Positions 481 to 37,674 of a stretch of 64,000 nucleotides of DNA are shown piece by piece. A program made the position numbers and the translations under genes. How positions within the stretch are numbered: position 1 is the stretch's first letter; each line of letters starts with the position of its first letter. The notes below the pieces were generated by a model. That model was not told where the DNA came from. It did not search any database and saw nothing but the letters and a program-made list of their open reading frames with translations. The DNA comes from Escherichia coli. GTDB taxonomy: Bacteria; Pseudomonadota; Gammaproteobacteria; Enterobacterales; Enterobacteriaceae. Where the stretch lies: assembly GCF_044647545.1 (NCBI RefSeq), contig NZ_CP172818.1; one strand, written 5' to 3'.

Positions 481-609
481 TTACTTCTCCGGTTAGTAAG
501 AAATCACGGGAGCCATGCTACCACTGTGATTTTAACCGCTTACTGACATGGCTCACGATGTTGCGCATTGCTTCTGGAAAGGATTTCCAGACGCAGGTCA
601 CGAATTTCC

Positions 610-3600
610 ATAAAACCAGACTGTTTTTTCATAAACACTCATTTACGATGACCCCCATCTCCCGAAAATCAGACAAACCACCATTACCGATAATCCCTAA
701 ACAAACACGAAAATCACCATACCGTTAATTTTTTTTTACAACGTACCATCACACTCAAACCACCCACAATCCACAAACTCGAAATGTCTTACTCATATAT
801 CACCACCCAGCGTTTGTAAACCATAACCAGTTGACGATTCCATTTTCACCATACCCCATTACAAACACCCAAACGAGCCCTCGTCATTTTTCACAAATTA
901 CCCCATATCGCTACGATATTCACCCCTTTACGAAACCCATTCACCCATACCATTTCATTTCAACGTACTGCATTGAAAATAAAAAAACACACCATATTCC
1001 AAATCCAAATCGCCACCCGTAACCCACGTTCCCCAACCATGACCCAACACCTCCAACGGTCCCATCAGCGACTTTATCCGTTAATTACCGTCATCAATTT
1101 CCCGCGTTCTCGCGCCTCTTCCATCGCATACGCCGATGACCCCACATACCCGTGTATTAAAACACCAGTTCCCTACCCCAACCTGATCCTCTTTTAATTA
1201 AATCGTTTGATCGATCATTCGTACAAAAACCCACCCGTGAATACTTCAAATTAAAGATGCCTTTCATACGCAAAACATGCTCACCAACCTCTTAATTTTT
1301 CTCTGTTCCATGATCTCCGTTAATCATCAATTCAACGTGATATTTCTGATGTTTCACTTTACCCACTGTGATTTAACTGATGTAACACCATGATCACGCA
1401 CGCCACCGAACCCACAGACTAACAGTACCACCTCAGAAACCGAGAAAAAGAAAGCATCAAATATTTCACCCCATCATCGAACACCATCGTAACCGACCAC
1501 CACGATAAAACCCCACAATCTCATCCAGGGTCACAAATCGAATCGCTCACATATTTTTATCATACCGCTACGAACAGCGAACAATCATCCGAACCAACGC
1601 CAATCTCACCCAACGCGAACATGCAGAATACAATCGAAACGTGTTCTTCCGCTGCTTTATCCGCCGCGTGCTGAAACTACGTGATTACCAAACACCGTCA
1701 CACCTCCTCCCACCAACAACGCGATCGATTCCTCGATGCTTTCTACCAACGATAACCAAATCGGAGATTATGCCGATCAGAATCCAAATCCCCCGCCGAG
1801 TTCATCCACCAACTATCAATTCCACGTACCACCACATAATTCGTTTTTAAATCACCAAATTAAACCAATCACCTACACAATTAACGACGATGATCTGAAA
1901 TTCATCCACACTCCCATTCCGCAATACAAAAAAAAAATATACAATAATTTTATACTTATTTCCATGATTTTCACCTTTTAATTCTCATCCCTCCTTTAAA
2001 CATATGTACACACGCTATTATTTAATTTGATTAATGTTCGTTTATTTTTCGATAATATTGATTAGATCTACCTACGAGCGTAAACCATATACCCAAGATT
2101 ATTTAATCATGAAACGTTAATAACTCATCTAATGAAATCTTTTTAACTGTTTCTTACCAAGTCACCATACCCCAATATTCATACCTATTTTTACCCCTCG
2201 AACCATTCTAACATCTTTCGATGAAAAGATAAAAAAGTTTCGTCCTATATTCGGGTTTGATAATCCGCGACGGCTTTTTCATATTACCACGTTAACCTTC
2301 ATTCCCGTCGCACCTACGCAATAATGTCCGGCGAATTCATCGTTATAAATTCGTCATTGCAGATAATAATGCGTTCGTTACCACTTTAACCAACGGTATA
2401 CCTCCGTGATCACGTCATCAATCCACGTAATGTTCATCAAAATCCTCCTCCGCTGTTCCACCTGTCTCCAACGACGCAGATTTCTTTCGATTTCTCCGTT
2501 CACAGAAATCCATCAATATTCATGCTTCCTGTTATCAACCATTCACCCACGCAGAGAAAGCCGCTGATTACCCCAACGAGATTCGCATCCAACATCGCTC
2601 CCATTCCACGGGCTCCGCACTGTAAACCACCAATCACCATCATCTTGATTTAATCTTACGTACTTTTCCACTTTCTACGATGTCTCCCGTTCTCGCCGCA
2701 CAAATTCAACCCTCGACCTCATCCGTATATCTAACTGATTCCACATCCAACTAATTTCCATCGCAAAAAATGCATTACCATAAAACCTGATCGTTTTTCC
2801 GCCCGCAATGTTATTTACTCCGTATAACCCGTTCAACACAGATAACAAACAAAATCACCATTCTCTAATCTTCCCCCCCAAAAATCGTTTTTTATACCTT
2901 CACGCACTGCTCGACGTGATATTCCGTCCACCCACCTTCTTCATATTCCCGTCCATCCTGTTTTTTCCAGAATCCCCCGCGATACCGACCACACGATACC
3001 GTCTTACCCATTCTTTCGACCAGACGATGAAGCTATTACGCACTTTATCGCGTACACTCTCCTTCTACCTTCCACCGACTTTCTAGAAACATTCACAATC
3101 ACCATGTGTTGTTCTACGTACCGTCCCCACCCTCGACATCAGAAAAAGTTTTTTATATACCATTTTTTCGAATCACTTCGTTATTCATACTCCCCACCTT
3201 TCTCATCACCACAACCGAAATTACCCGTTATTACCAACTCGATCACAAAATGATAATTTCTCTATATATTTACCTCTTCGCTTAGATTTCCCAAAATGAT
3301 ACCTTTACGATTCATATTTCCACCCACTAATATCACATCTTACATCCTTTCTAATAATTCACCACAACCAACCAATCCGACCATACAATAATATTTTACC
3401 AAATTTAAATTTCATAAACAATATTTTAGATAATAGACCCGTAATTTTTATATAAACATCGAAATTTTTATTCATAAATTCACTTTTATAAAAATTAATA
3501 TATTTTCCACCATGCAAACAATCTTATTTTTCTTCACCACAAGCCAAATGGAATATCTTTTTAATTTATTCATTCGATAAGATGTTTTTTCTCATATTCG

Positions 3601-4300
3601 TTTCAACCACCGTAATATCAAAAAACCGAGCAAATACGCCAGCAACCCGGGCATTCATCTCACTCTCTTCACCACCATAAAACCATCCATACCCTCCGAA
3701 TCCTACCAATTCCCACCACGACATCCAATTACCCATACAAATTTTTAAACCTAACTCATATCCCAACGAATTAATTTATCCACAACCGGAAAATCCCGAA
3801 TCGATTCCCCTTTCAACTCCCCTGTATTAATTTTTACATAACGCTTTCGATTTACCACGTCCGCCAATAATACCAGATTAACTCCCGATTCCCCCCCGCA
3901 ATTTTCAACATCCTCACCCCCCAGGAAAAACCAACAAACCCATCCACAACGACCACATCCCCTTAACCCCACACCCATTATCTCTTCATCCTCATCATTT
4001 CCCGACACACACAACTCTTTCAGCCAAACTTTTCTTCATCCCCACCAAGATTTTCTTATCATATACGATACAATTCCTCGACCCCTTTTAACAACTACGG
4101 TAAAACCACCCCGATCCCCTCATACCCAAAATCAACCACAATCAAACAATCTCACTTTTTCCATCCCTCTTTCCACATGCAAAACCTTTCCACCACGAAA
4201 ACACAGACTTTCAAACGATTTTTCACTCAAGAAAACGCTTTCTCCACATTTTTTCCAACACACACACACATTCAATATTGATTATCTTATTGCCACAAAA
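610..4300. other. Anomalous ORF-free, G-depleted (+ strand) block of ~3.7 kb between pepE and rluF; identity unknown
   Basis: Six-frame track shows only ORFs of 92 codons or fewer here; hand counts of several 60-nt lines give 2-7 G per 60 nt versus ~15 per 60 in flanks; A and C dominate. Boundaries approximate (left ~605-650, right ~4270-4310). Confidence 0.6.
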
Positions 4301-4422
4301 TTATCTATTTCCGGATACTTCTGTGATAAAAGCGGGCAGATCACATTAATTTCACGTTGCCTCATAACCCTTTTTTATCAACCCAAGAGGTACGGTATAT
4401 TCCGCGTTTTACAGGAGAATTT

Positions 4423-5358
4423 ATGCTGCCCGACTCATCAGTCCGTTTAAATAAATACATCAGCGAAAGCGGAATTTGCTCACGCCGCGAAGCGGATCGC
4501 TATATCGAGCAAGGCAATGTGTTCCTTAATGGCAAGCGAGCCACCATTGGCGATCAGGTGAAACCCGGCGACGTTGTGAAAGTAAACGGTCAGTTGATTG
4601 AGCCTCGGGAAGCCGAAGATTTGGTACTTATCGCCCTGAACAAGCCCGTCGGTATTGTCAGCACCACCGAAGATGGCGAGCGCGATAACATTGTCGATTT
4701 CGTTAACCACAGCAAACGCGTGTTCCCGATTGGCCGCCTGGATAAAGATTCCCAGGGGCTGATTTTCCTCACCAATCACGGCGATCTGGTGAATAAGATC
4801 CTCCGTGCGGGTAACGATCATGAGAAAGAGTATCTGGTGACGGTTGATAAACCGATTACCGATGAATTTATTCGTGGTATGGGGGCGGGAGTACCGATCC
4901 TCGGGACGGTAACTAAAAAGTGCAAAGTCAAAAAAGAAGCACCGTTTGTCTTCCGCATTACCCTGGTGCAGGGGCTGAACCGTCAGATTCGTCGCATGTG
5001 CGAGCACTTTGGTTACGAAGTGAAAAAGCTGGAACGTACGCGCATTATGAACGTCAGCTTAAGCGGCATTCCGCTGGGTGAGTGGCGCGATTTAACCGAC
5101 GATGAGTTAATCGATCTCTTTAAGCTCATTGAAAATTCCTCTTCCGAGGCAAAACCTAAAGCGAAGGCCAAACCGAAAACGGTAGGCATCAAACGTCCAG
5201 TCGTTAAGATGGAAAAAACGGTGGAAAAAGGCGGTCGCCCGGCGTCCAACGGTAAGCGTTTTACCTCGCCGGGGCGTAAAAAGAAGGGGGATCAGCGCCT
5301 GCCGCGCGTCGACGTATTTGCTGACCAGCTAAATGACGCCTCAGGATCCGGTTTATAA
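4423..5358 (+). CDS. rluF: 23S rRNA pseudouridine synthase RluF (S4 domain plus pseudouridine synthase domain)
   Basis: ORF 4357-5358; protein [45 protein letters not shown]... from ATG 4423. Frame as read here is 311 codons and overlaps yjbD; from memory K-12 RluF is 290 aa, so the 3' end is uncertain. Confidence 0.85.
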
Positions 5359-5564
5359 GCCTGCTTTTTCTTCAATTGGCGGGCTTTTTTCGCTTCAGCC
5401 TCACGCTCGACCATTAATTTATCGATGTACTCTTTCTTAATGCTGTTAGTTTCGGAGTTGGTCAGTACGCGACCATGCGCAATCCGCGCCCGATCCAGCA
5501 GTGTTTTAAGTTCACGCTGCTCGCGTTCAGTCATCTCTTTTTGGGTAATACGGGGGAGTGCCAT
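5292..5564 (-). CDS. yjbD: Small conserved protein YjbD (DUF3811)
   Basis: 90-aa [37 protein letters not shown]...; position between rluF and lysC. Confidence 0.8.
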
Positions 5565-5815
5565 GATGGTGCCCTCAGTGAGCCAGAGAGTTCAGTGTAC
5601 GGGAATTCGTTTGCGAGCAGAACTGATAATATTCATTTTGCCTTCTCTTAACTATTTATCTCTTTCGATAATTAGCGATAAATACAGATAAAAATTTAAC
5701 GCAAATTATTATCCGATAAAGACGCTGGTTAACAGAGTACAGGCTCGTTTATTGATGAGCATAGTGACAAGAAAATCAATACGGCCCGAAATATAGCTTC
5801 CAGGCCATACAGTAT

Positions 5816-7165
5816 TTACTCAAATAAATTAAAATGCAGCTTCTGCACCACCTGCTCGGCATCTTCGCCGGGCACCAGGAAGCACAGGTTATGGCTGGAT
5901 GCGCCGTAACAAATCATGCGAATGTTGAACGGTTCCAGTACGCCGAATACCTCTTTGCCAACGCCGCAGGCTTTTGACAGGTCATTGCCAATCAACGCGA
6001 CCAGCGCCAGACCTTCCTCCACTTCTACCCGGCATAGTGCAGACAGCTCCATCAGCAGAGATTGCGTCAGCAACGTATCGCCAGTGGAGGTTGAACCGGT
6101 GGTATCAAGGGTTAATGCCACGCTCACTTCTGACGTGGTGATTAAGTCTACCGAAATATTATGCCGCGCGAGGATGCCGAAAACTTCCGCGAGGAAACCG
6201 CGAGAATGCAGCATATTCAGGCTGTGCAAAGTGAGCAGAGTCTGATTGCGACGAAGCGCCAGCGCGCGGAACAGCGGCGGATTTTCAGTTTTATTGCACA
6301 CCAGCGTACCACCTGCGCGTGGGTCTTTGCTGGAGCCGACAAAGACCGGGATATCGCTGCGTACTGCGGGTAGCAACGTTGCCGGATGCAGTACTTTTGC
6401 ACCAAAAGTTGCCATCTCTGCCGCTTCGGCAAACGCGATTTCATCAATGCGTTTTGCTGCGGAAACCACGCGTGGATCGGTGGTGTAGATGCCAGGGACG
6501 TCGGTCCAGATATCAACACGAGTTGCGTGTAAAGCCTCCGCCAGCAAGGCTGCCGTATAATCGCTGCCTCCACGGCCAAGCGTCGTTGTACGACCTTTAT
6601 TTTCGCTACCGATAAATCCCTGGGTGATCACTAAGCCTTCATTGAGGCGTGGGAGCAGCTGCAGCGCGGCCAGTTCCGCCAGCGCGGCTACATCTGGCTC
6701 TGCACGACCAAATCGGTCGTTGGTACGCATCACTTTACGTACATCAAACCACTGTGCCTGAACATCGCGTTCGCGCAGGATTTCGACAAACAGCAGGGTC
6801 GACATCAGCTCGCCGTGGCTGACCAGTTCATCTGTCAGCGCCGGAGACGTTGCCAGCGCCGCCGCTTCTGCCAGAACAGTAATGTTCTCCAGCAGACGTT
6901 CAATCTCTTCACGGATAACGTTCGGGTAACGCAGACGTTCCAGAATGGCAAACTGGATATTGCGGATTGCGTCGAGTTTTTCGAATCGCTCGCCAGGTTC
7001 CAGTCCTTCAGCTAAAGCGACCAGCAGATTAGTGATACCAGCAGAAGCCGAGAGGACAACTAAACGCACGTTGGCATCAGAAAGCACAATATCAGCGCTG
7101 CGGTTCATGGCGTCAAAATCAGCTACGCTGGTACCGCCAAATTTGGAGACAACAATTTCAGACAT
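5816..7165 (-). CDS. lysC: Lysine-sensitive aspartokinase III
   Basis: 449-aa ORF MSEIVVSKFGGTSVADFDAMNRSADIVLSDANVRLVVLSASAG...; full-length match to LysC from memory. Confidence 0.97.
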   Translation of the reverse strand: MSEIVVSKFGGTSVADFDAMNRSADIVLSDANVRLVVLSASAGITNLLVALAEGLEPGERFEKLDAIRNIQFAILERLRYPNVIREEIERLLENITVLAEAAALATSPALTDELVSHGELMSTLLFVEILRERDVQAQWFDVRKVMRTNDRFGRAEPDVAALAELAALQLLPRLNEGLVITQGFIGSENKGRTTTLGRGGSDYTAALLAEALHATRVDIWTDVPGIYTTDPRVVSAAKRIDEIAFAEAAEMATFGAKVLHPATLLPAVRSDIPVFVGSSKDPRAGGTLVCNKTENPPLFRALALRRNQTLLTLHSLNMLHSRGFLAEVFGILARHNISVDLITTSEVSVALTLDTTGSTSTGDTLLTQSLLMELSALCRVEVEEGLALVALIGNDLSKACGVGKEVFGVLEPFNIRMICYGASSHNLCFLVPGEDAEQVVQKLHFNLFE

Positions 7166-7189
7166 AACTACCTCGTGTCAGGGGATCCA

Positions 7190-7470
7190 TTTTCAGCCTT
7201 GGCACAAGGGAAGAGCGGAAGACGGGTGGGCGCAGAGCGATACTTCGCTACTATTTTCACCCAGAAGTGCTCCACCACTTGCGAAACGCCCGACTGCGAA
7301 CGCTTCTGGTGACAACCCAGGGGATTCAGCCCCTGTAGCCGATGATGAACGTGGCCAGCCGTTCAATCACCTCGGCGATGCACCCCCTCAGGTGTTATCA
7401 CAGGACTGGCTCCTCCAACACCGTTACTTGGGCAACGCGCCTCTTCTGGCCTGCGCTAGCGCAGGTAGTA
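7190..7470 (-). ncRNA. lysC leader containing lysine riboswitch (L box)
   Basis: Long 5' leader upstream of lysC on the - strand; minus-strand sequence begins AGAGGCGCGTTGCCCAAGTAACGGTGTTGGAGGAGCC... and contains GCCGAGG and GGGGCUGAAUCCCC, consistent with L-box features recalled from memory. Exact ends not determined. Confidence 0.65.
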
Positions 7471-7689
7471 CATTTATAAATAAAGGGTGAGCGGGGCGGT
7501 TGTCAACGATGGGGTCATGCGGATTTTTCATCCACTCCTGGCGGTCAGTAGTTCAGCTAATAAATGCTTCGCTGCGCTAAGGGTTTACACTCAACATTAC
7601 GCTAACGGCACTAAAACCATCACATTTTTCTGTGACTGGCGCTACAATCTTCCAAAGTCACAATTCTCAAAATCAGAAGAGTATTGCTA

Positions 7690-9339
7690 ATGAAAAACAT
7701 CAATCCAACGCAGACCGCTGCCTGGCAGGCACTACAGAAACACTTCGATGAAATGAAAGACGTTACGATCGCCGATCTTTTTGCTAAAGACGGCGATCGT
7801 TTTTCTAAGTTCTCCGCAACCTTCGACGATCAGATGCTGGTGGATTACTCCAAAAACCGCATCACTGAAGAGACGCTGGCGAAATTACAAGATCTGGCGA
7901 AAGAGTGCGATCTGGCGGGCGCGATTAAGTCGATGTTCTCTGGCGAGAAGATCAACCGCACTGAAAACCGCGCCGTGCTGCACGTAGCGCTGCGTAACCG
8001 TAGCAATACCCCGATTCTGGTTGATGGCAAAGATGTTATGCCGGAAGTCAACGCGGTGCTGGAGAAGATGAAAACCTTCTCGGAAGCGATTATTTCCGGT
8101 GAGTGGAAAGGCTATACCGGCAAAGCAATCACTGACGTAGTGAACATCGGGATCGGCGGTTCTGACCTCGGCCCGTACATGGTGACTGAAGCACTGCGTC
8201 CATACAAAAACCACCTGAACATGCACTTTGTTTCTAACGTCGATGGGACTCACATCGCGGAAGTGCTGAAAAAAGTAAACCCGGAAACCACGCTGTTCCT
8301 GGTAGCATCTAAAACCTTCACCACTCAGGAAACCATGACCAACGCCCATAGCGCGCGTGACTGGTTCCTGAAAGCGGCAAGTGATGAGAAACACGTTGCG
8401 AAACACTTTGCGGCGCTTTCCACCAACGCCAAAGCCGTTGGCGAGTTTGGTATTGATACTGCCAACATGTTCGAATTCTGGGACTGGGTCGGCGGTCGTT
8501 ACTCTTTGTGGTCAGCGATTGGCCTGTCGATTGTTCTCTCCATCGGCTTTGATAACTTCGTTGAACTGCTTTCTGGCGCACACGCGATGGACAAGCATTT
8601 CTCCACCACGCCTGCCGAGAAAAACCTGCCTGTACTGCTGGCGCTGATTGGCATCTGGTACAACAATTTCTTTGGCGCGGAAACTGAAGCGATTCTGCCT
8701 TATGACCAGTATATGCACCGTTTCGCGGCGTACTTCCAGCAGGGCAATATGGAGTCCAACGGTAAGTATGTTGACCGTAACGGTAAGGTTGTGGATTACC
8801 AGACTGGCCCGATTATCTGGGGTGAACCAGGTACGAACGGTCAGCACGCGTTCTATCAGCTGATCCACCAGGGAACCAAAATGGTACCGTGCGATTTCAT
8901 CGCTCCGGCTATCACCCATAACCCGCTCTCTGATCATCACCAGAAACTGCTGTCTAACTTCTTTGCTCAGACCGAAGCGCTGGCGTTTGGTAAATCCCGC
9001 GAAGTGGTTGAGCAGGAATATCGCGATCAGGGTAAAGATCCGGCAACGCTTGACTACGTGGTGCCGTTCAAAGTGTTCGAAGGTAACCGCCCGACCAACT
9101 CCATCCTGCTGCGTGAAATCACTCCGTTCAGCCTGGGTGCGTTGATTGCGCTGTATGAGCACAAAATCTTTACTCAGGGCGTGATCCTGAACATCTTCAC
9201 CTTCGACCAGTGGGGCGTGGAACTGGGTAAACAGCTGGCGAACCGTATTCTGCCAGAGCTGAAAGATGACAAAGAAATCAGCAGCCACGATAGCTCGACC
9301 AATGGTCTGATTAACCGCTATAAAGCGTGGCGCGGTTAA
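7690..9339 (+). CDS. pgi: Glucose-6-phosphate isomerase
   Basis: 549 aa from [25 protein letters not shown]... (ORF track starts 6 nt upstream at 7684). Confidence 0.97.
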
Positions 9340-9355
9340 TTAAAAACCTTAATAA

Positions 9356-9387
9356 CAATGCCGACTATAAGTCGGCATTGTTTTATC
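9356..9387 (+). terminator. Putative intrinsic terminator downstream of pgi
   Basis: Inverted repeat caatgccgact/agtcggcattg followed by ttttatc. Confidence 0.6.
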
Positions 9388-9692
9388 AGATAAATCCTCT
9401 TGTCTGTTATTTAACGAAAATCATACCGTGAGGTTAATCCTAAAATAGATTTTTAATCGTGATTGATTTCGGAAAATACGCAGATTAATTACTTTTATTT
9501 TTATTTTAAGCTTATGATTTTTAATATTATTTATATATAAGTTGAAGCTTATATTTGATATTCATTCCAATTATCCTAAAACCCCATCGCTAATTCCCTG
9601 CGCCGTAATTCGCATGCTTTAGTTGTGTATACTCGATCCCGCCCGAAATGTTTTTGGGTAAATCTCCATTCATTCAATGAAGGGAAATTGTT

Positions 9693-9935
9693 ATGAAAAA
9701 AGTTCTGTATGGCATTTTTGCCATATCTGCGCTTGCGGCGACTTCTGCGTGGGCTGCACCTGTACAGGTGGGCGAAGCGGCAGGATCGGCAGCAACGTCG
9801 GTTTCGGCGGGGAGTTCCTCCGCGACCAGCGTCAGCACCGTAAGCTCGGCGGTGGGTGTCGCGCTCGCGGCAACCGGTGGCGGTGATGGTTCTAATACCG
9901 GGACCACAACAACCACGACCACCAGTACCCAGTAA
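9693..9935 (+). CDS. yjbE: Small secreted Ser/Thr/Gly/Ala-rich protein YjbE (yjbEFGH operon)
   Basis: 80-aa [24 protein letters not shown]... with signal peptide and low-complexity S/T/G tail. Confidence 0.85.
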
Positions 9936-10048
9936 TAAAGTATGTATCCCCAAAATAATTCGAGTCATTGCATCTGTGGCTTGAAGTATGAAGGGATTTA
10001 CCATAACCACACTCCGGTGTGGTTATTCTGCCCCTCTGGAGAAGAGTC

Positions 10049-36258: not shown

Positions 36259-37674
36259 ATGGCAGGAAATAAACCCTTCAACAAACAGCAGGCTGAACCC
36301 CGCGAACGCGATCCACAAGTTGCCGGGCTGAAAGTGCCTCCGCACTCGATCGAAGCGGAGCAGTCGGTGTTGGGCGGTTTAATGCTGGATAACGAACGCT
36401 GGGACGATGTAGCCGAGCGTGTGGTGGCAGACGATTTTTACACCCGCCCACACCGTCATATCTTTACTGAAATGGCGCGTTTACAGGAAAGCGGTAGTCC
36501 TATCGATCTGATTACCCTTGCGGAATCGCTGGAACGCCAGGGGCAACTTGATAGCGTCGGTGGTTTCGCTTATCTGGCGGAGCTGTCAAAAAATACGCCA
36601 AGTGCGGCGAACATCAGTGCTTATGCTGACATCGTGCGTGAACGTGCCGTTGTTCGCGAGATGATTTCGGTTGCGAATGAGATTGCCGAAGCCGGTTTTG
36701 ATCCGCAGGGGCGTACCAGCGAAGATCTGCTGGACCTGGCTGAATCCCGCGTCTTTAAAATTGCCGAAAGTCGTGCAAACAAAGACGAAGGGCCGAAGAA
36801 CATCGCCGATGTGCTCGACGCCACGGTGGCGCGTATTGAGCAGTTGTTTCAGCAGCCACACGATGGCGTTACCGGGGTAAACACCGGTTATGACGATCTC
36901 AACAAAAAAACCGCTGGCTTGCAGCCGTCGGATTTGATCATCGTCGCCGCGCGTCCGTCGATGGGTAAAACAACATTTGCGATGAACCTCGTTGAAAACG
37001 CGGCGATGTTGCAGGATAAACCAGTACTTATCTTCTCACTGGAGATGCCATCAGAACAGATTATGATGCGTTCTTTGGCGTCGCTGTCGCGCGTTGACCA
37101 GACTAAAATCCGTACCGGGCAGCTCGATGATGAAGACTGGGCACGTATTTCCGGCACCATGGGTATTTTGCTCGAAAAACGTAATATCTATATCGATGAT
37201 TCCTCCGGCCTGACGCCAACGGAAGTGCGTTCCCGCGCGCGCCGTATTGCCCGTGAACACGGCGGCATCGGGCTTATCATGATCGACTACCTGCAACTGA
37301 TGCGCGTACCGGCGCTTTCCGATAACCGTACGCTGGAAATTGCAGAAATCTCCCGCTCGCTGAAAGCACTGGCGAAAGAACTGAACGTGCCGGTGGTGGC
37401 GCTGTCCCAGTTGAACCGTTCTCTGGAACAACGTGCCGACAAACGCCCGGTCAACTCCGACCTGCGTGAATCTGGCTCTATCGAGCAGGATGCGGACTTG
37501 ATCATGTTTATCTATCGTGATGAGGTGTATCACGAAAACAGTGATTTAAAAGGCATCGCGGAAATTATTATCGGTAAACAACGTAACGGCCCAATCGGGA
37601 CGGTACGCCTGACCTTTAACGGTCAATGGTCGCGCTTCGACAACTATGCGGGGCCGCAGTACGACGACGAATAA
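36259..37674 (+). CDS. dnaB: Replicative DNA helicase DnaB
   Basis: 471-aa ORF MAGNKPFNKQQAEPRERDPQVAGLKVPPHSIEAEQSVLGGLMLDNERWDDV... Confidence 0.98.
   Translation: MAGNKPFNKQQAEPRERDPQVAGLKVPPHSIEAEQSVLGGLMLDNERWDDVAERVVADDFYTRPHRHIFTEMARLQESGSPIDLITLAESLERQGQLDSVGGFAYLAELSKNTPSAANISAYADIVRERAVVREMISVANEIAEAGFDPQGRTSEDLLDLAESRVFKIAESRANKDEGPKNIADVLDATVARIEQLFQQPHDGVTGVNTGYDDLNKKTAGLQPSDLIIVAARPSMGKTTFAMNLVENAAMLQDKPVLIFSLEMPSEQIMMRSLASLSRVDQTKIRTGQLDDEDWARISGTMGILLEKRNIYIDDSSGLTPTEVRSRARRIAREHGGIGLIMIDYLQLMRVPALSDNRTLEIAEISRSLKALAKELNVPVVALSQLNRSLEQRADKRPVNSDLRESGSIEQDADLIMFIYRDEVYHENSDLKGIAEIIIGKQRNGPIGTVRLTFNGQWSRFDNYAGPQYDDE

Follow-up and report, generated by a model that had tools for sequence, protein, structure and literature searches.

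The rluF–yjbD locus and its products

The window, a 64,000-nucleotide stretch of Escherichia coli DNA, carries on its + strand a rluF reading frame of 311 codons (4423–5358), which is open from an ATG at 4423 to a TAA at 5356–5358; an ORF listing begins the same frame further upstream, at a TTG at 4357. The convergent gene yjbD (5292–5564, − strand) overlaps the end of this frame by 67 nt (5292–5358). An earlier note on this DNA had described both the 311-codon frame and the overlap, had read codon 291 (5293–5295) as CAG and had quoted the residues of the C-terminal tail, all of which we recovered from the window sequence and its translation. The RluF length of 290 aa given in the note was likewise correct: the rluF coding sequence is 873 nt (290 aa) in FDAARGOS_497, O157:H7 F7386 and K-12 MG1655, so that this length is based on three RefSeq annotations together with the 290-aa chain of PDB 3DH3. 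Reference RluF proteins of about 311 aa with the same C-terminus, which the note had named as the finding that would overturn its reading, were not encountered, the references being 290 aa. The canonical RluF end (290 aa, ...KKKGR) is absent from the 311-aa window ORF.

Residues 1–289 of the window protein are authentic RluF, made up of an S4 RNA-binding domain (PF01479, residues 7–52, E = 7e-14), a PseudoU_synth_2 domain (PF00849, residues 69–195, E = 4e-21) and a basic tail, and the catalytic-Asp motif GRLDKDSQG is present in the translation. The match to 3DH3 (RluF) extends across residues 1–289 with E = 8e-189, compared with E = 7e-30 for RluB, and RefSeq names the syntenic gene rluF in three genomes, establishing orthology to RluF rather than to RluB, RluE or RsuA. 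The 22 residues and TAA that follow (5290–5358, + strand) are antisense to the last yjbD codons, as translation and the junction alignment indicate, and are very probably spurious; the Pfam domain limits support the note's statement that the tail lies in no catalytic domain. Because approximately 21 sense codons (~64/3) are expected by chance once a stop is lost, the 21-codon run-on is in itself uninformative. The C-terminal ~40 residues of RluF are disordered and make no contact with the RNA (substrate) stem-loop (PMC3919597), and an extension at this end could therefore be tolerated.

The yjbD gene is unaffected. Its product is a full-length, 90-aa DUF3811/YjbD protein, of which residues 3–90 align to profile positions 1–88 of 88 in PF11656 (E = 7e-43), and its TGA stop is kept (TCA on the + strand, 5292–5294). 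The exact window YjbD protein was found on more than 1000 contigs in a collection of ~15 billion proteins.

The junction at base level

In the closest relatives, which are ST648-type, the junction reads GGGGCGTTAATCAG, compared with GGGGGATCAG in the window, from which four bases are missing. The missing bases, at 5289/5290 (feature 5289–5290), take in the Arg290 codon and the TAA stop of rluF, and in the junction and K-12 alignments the same point is the breakpoint of a 136-nt deletion relative to K-12. Alignment to three genomes resolves the window junction codons (AAG GGG GAT CAG CGC) into four lost bases plus one base that differs; in genomes free of the K-12 insert described below, the corresponding sequence is AAG GGG CG(T/C) TAA|TCA GCG, and the rluF TAA abuts the yjbD stop. 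Judging from this junction alignment with three genomes, most E. coli would lack any spacer between rluF and yjbD. Across both genes, the window departs from FDAARGOS_497 at the junction alone.

The earlier note had suggested a single C/T difference at 5293 and had proposed aligning the junction to reference rluF and yjbD as a check. That alignment does show the window to differ from the references at the end of rluF, and it shows that the C/T change is not the cause, identifying instead the 4-base loss at 5289/5290 and one K-12-like base. Position 5293 is a genuine C/T polymorphism (T in K-12, C in ST648-type genomes), and it was not used as the rluF stop in any real genome compared.

A natural polymorphism distinguishes genomes at this locus: a K-12-type, REP-like insert of ~132 nt lies between the rluF and yjbD stops and is absent from the insert-free genomes compared. 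The insert occupies 1397–1528 of the extracted K-12 locus, which corresponds to 1396/1397 in the insert-free locus, and is flanked by imperfect direct repeats of 11–14 nt (CGCTGATTAACGCC ... GTGGATTAGCGCC). The rluF–yjbD spans are 405 and 537 nt, the genuine insert-free allele being 132 nt shorter than that of K-12. The window equals K-12 minus bases 1391–1526 of the extracted K-12 locus, a clean 136-nt deletion. In the 120 nt to each side of the junction, however, the window carries the ST648 base at every K-12/ST648 SNP, and the sole non-ST648 base in these flanks is G5290, the K-12 base beside the breakpoint. The junction sequence folded no better than shuffled sequence (z = +1.05), and skipping at a hairpin was therefore rejected as an explanation of the lost bases, although four other sites are near hairpins.

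None of 5,426 complete E. coli genomes contains the window junction, and exact-pattern scans found it neither in GTDB species representatives nor in JGI metagenome contigs. The exact 311-aa RluF was present on only one contig among the ~15 billion proteins, and the recurrence in independent genomes or samples that would mark a natural stop-loss allele was not observed. Nor can the lineage's own allele be turned into the window junction in one mutational step: a 4-nt deletion would have to be joined by a substitution, or two deletions would have to occur independently.

Private differences along the window

Outside a few anomalous sites, the window is essentially identical to ST648-type E. coli (99.9–100%). 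Positions 1–577 and 5815–19832 are 100% and 99.93% identical to FDAARGOS_497 (CP033850), respectively, 26999–64000 are 99.92% identical to IMT16316 (CP023815), and zero differences from the ST648-type relative were found in 18833–32337. This match rules out an origin in another species or Shigella, a divergent source at which a mean identity of 94% over 20 kb and one of 98.7% across lysC–pgi had misleadingly hinted. The sole contig with the 311-aa protein is 4.50 Mb, compared with 4.9–5.3 Mb in relatives, as expected if strain-specific islands went unrecovered; the FDAARGOS_497 dusA prophage is missing from the window.

We catalogued all private differences, that is, those between the window and FDAARGOS_497 or IMT16316, and then aligned the window to K-12. 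The K-12 alignment splits into blocks at seven places: the sor island, which is absent from K-12 (606/4361); the REP insert in K-12 at the rluF–yjbD junction (5289); a REP/BIME insert in K-12 after pgi (9340); a REP insert in K-12 upstream of psiE (13915); xylE, present only in K-12 (14456–14463); a highly divergent DUF2713 region (32735–33243); and espX5, also present only in K-12 (53596–53654). Every private difference except a G-run at 63518 is at or near one of these boundaries, and none was detected away from them in ~55 kb. The run lies in nrfE and has seven G in the window against six in IMT16316 (locus position 36537), whose nrfE is annotated as frameshifted, so this difference belongs to IMT16316.

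Private bases are K-12-like at the rluF, pgi, psiE-upstream, psiE and DUF2713 sites. Just past the pgi stop, at the K-12 REP/BIME site (9330–9342), a single T is lost at 9342; at the K-12 REP site upstream of psiE (13905–13966), a complex change leaves the window 5 nt shorter, with the K-12-like 'TTTTTGCGG'; and in the DUF2713 region (32338–33452), where K-12 and ST648-type sequences are ~70% identical, the window has the K-12 base at 6/6 private positions. The convergent yjcE/actP spacer, at the K-12 espX5 site (53595–53654), has private losses of 6 nt and 12 nt, and its private sequence is not clearly K-12-like and is no simple 'K-12 minus deletion'. MG1655 as the exact reference thus fits the rluF, pgi, psiE-upstream, psiE and DUF2713 sites and does not cleanly fit yjcE/actP, and we describe the pattern only as 'K-12-like'. 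The small private losses at 9342, 13905–13920 and 53595–53625 are all intergenic, and those at 53595–53625 (6 nt + 12 nt) take away half of a terminator hairpin. Expected features in these parts of the window include a lysine riboswitch upstream of lysC (7257–7453, − strand, 99.5 bits) and the sRNA STnc430 downstream of pgi (9347–9496, − strand, 72.6 bits).

At psiE (14051–14488, + strand), alignments revealed a second destroyed stop, with changes at ~14453–14459 that lengthen the product from 136 to 145 aa. Compared with relatives, the TAA is gone through two single-base losses; compared with K-12, which has xylE between psiE and malG at this site, the window is the K-12 left flank joined to the K-12 right flank (a clean deletion) plus two A>G ST648 SNPs, and it lacks the 1-nt T insertion that makes the ST648 stop codon. 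This form of psiE was found in 0/5,426 E. coli genomes.

Alignment to chromosomal and phage-borne dusA identified five private bases at the dusA 5′ end (33621–33689, + strand), within the first ~70 nt of the gene. All five match the phage-borne dusA 5′ allele that lies beside the integrase of a FDAARGOS_497 prophage (~4125–4200 of the extracted FDAARGOS_497 locus), and they are interleaved with more than 10 chromosomal-type bases. This mosaic fits two copies piled on one reference locus, not recombination, and suggests that the isolate carries a dusA prophage lacking from the assembly. Closer to rluF, a 99-nt stretch (5716–5814) has 100% identity to K-12, and its ST648-like flanks differ strongly from K-12. 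The stretch coincides with the site of a P2-like prophage of FDAARGOS_497 (yjbD–lysC) that bears a CTX-M-15/OXA-1 resistance region, and IMT16316, judged by the spacing of matches, also appears to have an insert at yjbD–lysC; the K-12 stretch is possibly reference fill-in.

Immediately before rluF, the window carries a garbled copy of the L-sorbose PTS (sor) island (578–4385). Over 3.8 kb the stretch has no long ORFs, a GC skew of −0.4 to −0.8 and 75% identity to the sor island of ST648-type strains, and its end lies 38 nt before the start codon of rluF; the initial ~2 kb of the island are missing from the window, and K-12-like bases are found at both edges of the stretch. Base losses are concentrated on one nucleotide, with ~68% of G, 10% of C, 11% of T and 0.8% of A (9/1198) lost, and substitutions affect only ~0.6% of positions. 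G retention depends on context, CGA, GGA and CGT being mostly kept and AGT, AGG and TGG almost always lost. G>A hypermutation or deaminase activity, a first impression from the GC skew, was ruled out because the changes are base losses, not substitutions. The stretch resembles a pseudogenized or hypermutated operon but is technical dropout, and its pattern of base loss is no biological mutation spectrum; noisy long reads or reference-backbone polishing are possible sources.

Origin of the rluF extension

Reference bias and misplaced gaps are a general bioinformatic artefact of reference-guided consensus genomes. We consider it highly likely that the source record is such a consensus, built from an ST648-like isolate on a K-12-like backbone, and that the rluF extension is an artefact of it. 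The assembly procedure itself is one that we infer from sequence comparisons; observed directly are the sequence differences, the location that they share with breakpoints, the K-12-like bases at those places, the mixed dusA and the uniqueness of the junction. Several hallmarks of a consensus of this kind are present: private differences share sites with K-12 structural breakpoints (the G-run at 63518 excepted), private bases are reference-like (G5290, the psiE junction, the two REP sites and 6/6 in DUF2713, though not clearly at yjcE/actP), and alleles are interleaved as in collapsed duplicates (the dusA 5′ end). At rluF–yjbD, the aligner would have needed to open a gap for the K-12 insert, whose flanking direct repeats have diverged. 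Setting the gap as 136 nt instead of 132 nt, with the reference base beside the breakpoint retained, would remove CGTT(A), including the Arg290 codon and the TAA stop, and the rluF frame would then stay open across the antisense strand of yjbD until a stop occurred by chance. That consensus step would have produced the 22-residue tail and the 67-nt overlap as well as the PsiE extension, and the psiE stop loss belongs to the same class of artefact, with the same mechanism, as the rluF extension. The isolate's own junctions would then be CGTTAATCAG (normal rluF–yjbD) and GCGGGAGTAA (psiE–malG), and its RluF is most likely the normal 290-aa protein, with no overlap between the genes. Some observations sit uneasily with a reference-guided consensus. 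A pure K-12 consensus should be without the sor island, yet 3.8 kb of it are present in garbled form; the G-specific, context-dependent dropout there is not explained by simple reference bias; the yjcE/actP sequence is not simply K-12 with a deletion, and the reference may not be MG1655; and the record was deposited, with coding regions that are otherwise perfect.

Of the possibilities raised in the earlier note, a natural read-through variant is disfavoured, since two events are needed and none was seen in 5,426 genomes, and of its alternative, a point difference or error, the error is favoured, as a misplaced deletion in a reference-guided consensus, and the point difference is not. A genuine private mutation, in which the four bases were truly lost at the abutting stops to give a 22-residue RluF extension and a 67-nt overlap, is quite unlikely in our view. 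The sequence stands in a public assembly with an intact ORF, the added residues would be tolerable on a disordered tail (PMC3919597), and with a 0-nt spacer any small indel at this point alters a stop codon. Such a mutation would nevertheless require two events (either a 4-nt deletion and an A>G change, or the loss of C and, independently, of TTA) in a lineage otherwise without a private SNP in ~55 kb, and its outcome would need to match 'K-12 minus 136 nt' to the base; changes of this kind are also present at other K-12/ST648 breakpoints in the window, and the allele is absent from the 5,426 genomes, GTDB representatives and metagenome contigs. If the loss were genuine, the isolate would carry a stop-loss allele private to it, extending a disordered tail and probably neutral.

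Dropout during base calling or assembly that is independent of any reference, through the process that affected the sor stretch and acting here by chance or local structure, is very unlikely. Losing one C, two T and one A inside 6 nt, without any substitution, is enough to describe the junction change; the other private sites can likewise be expressed as bursts of dropout, and the 3.8-kb dropout stretch ends only 38 nt before the rluF ATG. However, no error is seen in the 905 nt that separate that stretch from the junction, one A is lost at the junction even though A is almost never lost in the sor stretch (9/1198), and the junction has no significant hairpin (z = +1.05). Random loss, moreover, would not yield K-12 bases or fall only at or near K-12/ST648 breakpoints. 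The identity of the window to K-12 with a clean 136-nt deletion, and the imperfect direct repeats that flank the insert, might instead reflect natural imprecise excision, the lineage having once held a K-12-type REP insert that was lost by a 136-nt deletion between the repeats. We regard this as extremely unlikely, as the flanking SNPs are all ST648-type, the ST648-type genome examined at base level has the insert-free abutting allele, gain and then loss of the insert would be required, and the parallel anomalies at other sites are left unexplained.

The biological weight of the extension is very small, since RluF is well characterized and even a real extension would be on a disordered tail without RNA contact. 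The practical value of the locus is as a warning that the errors of a public consensus of this kind gather where isolate and reference differ structurally. Here, errors have made plausible-looking proteins (RluF-311, PsiE-145) and a sor operon that falsely looks pseudogenized, have left dusA with a mosaic 5′ end and have removed prophages; of these products, RluF-311 at least is already part of a large protein collection. Caution is warranted for findings at or near 578–4385, 5289, 5716–5814, 9340, 13915, 14456, 32300–33700 and 53600.

Set beside known systems, the window gene corresponds to E. coli RluF (YjbC), a 23S rRNA pseudouridine(2604) synthase of the RsuA family (PDB 3DH3, 2GML). It shares the usual setting, with pepE/sor on one side and yjbD–lysC on the other, and residues 1–289 are like those of the 290-aa 3DH3 chain except for four substitutions; the difference lies in the 311 rather than 290 aa, with 22 residues from antisense yjbD in place of Arg290 and the stop. 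The insert-free allele of ST648-type FDAARGOS_497 and O157 F7386, GGGGCG(T/C)TAATCAG, has a 0-nt spacer and no overlap, and the window is without four of these bases; the flanks are the same as those of the window, and FDAARGOS_497 is 100% identical over the remainder of rluF and yjbD. The window also equals the K-12-type allele minus 136 nt, with the same G at the right breakpoint, but in that allele rluF retains a stop of its own (CGC TGA) at the insert's left edge, and the flanking SNPs of the window are ST648-type, not K-12-type. Compared with the reference-bias artefact known from consensus genomes, the G-depleted, garbled sor island is not classical for short-read mapping and indicates an extra step. 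In other respects the window shares the features of that artefact: errors occur only at breakpoints, with reference bases kept beside them, duplicates collapse to mixed alleles, islands are missing and the genome is undersized.
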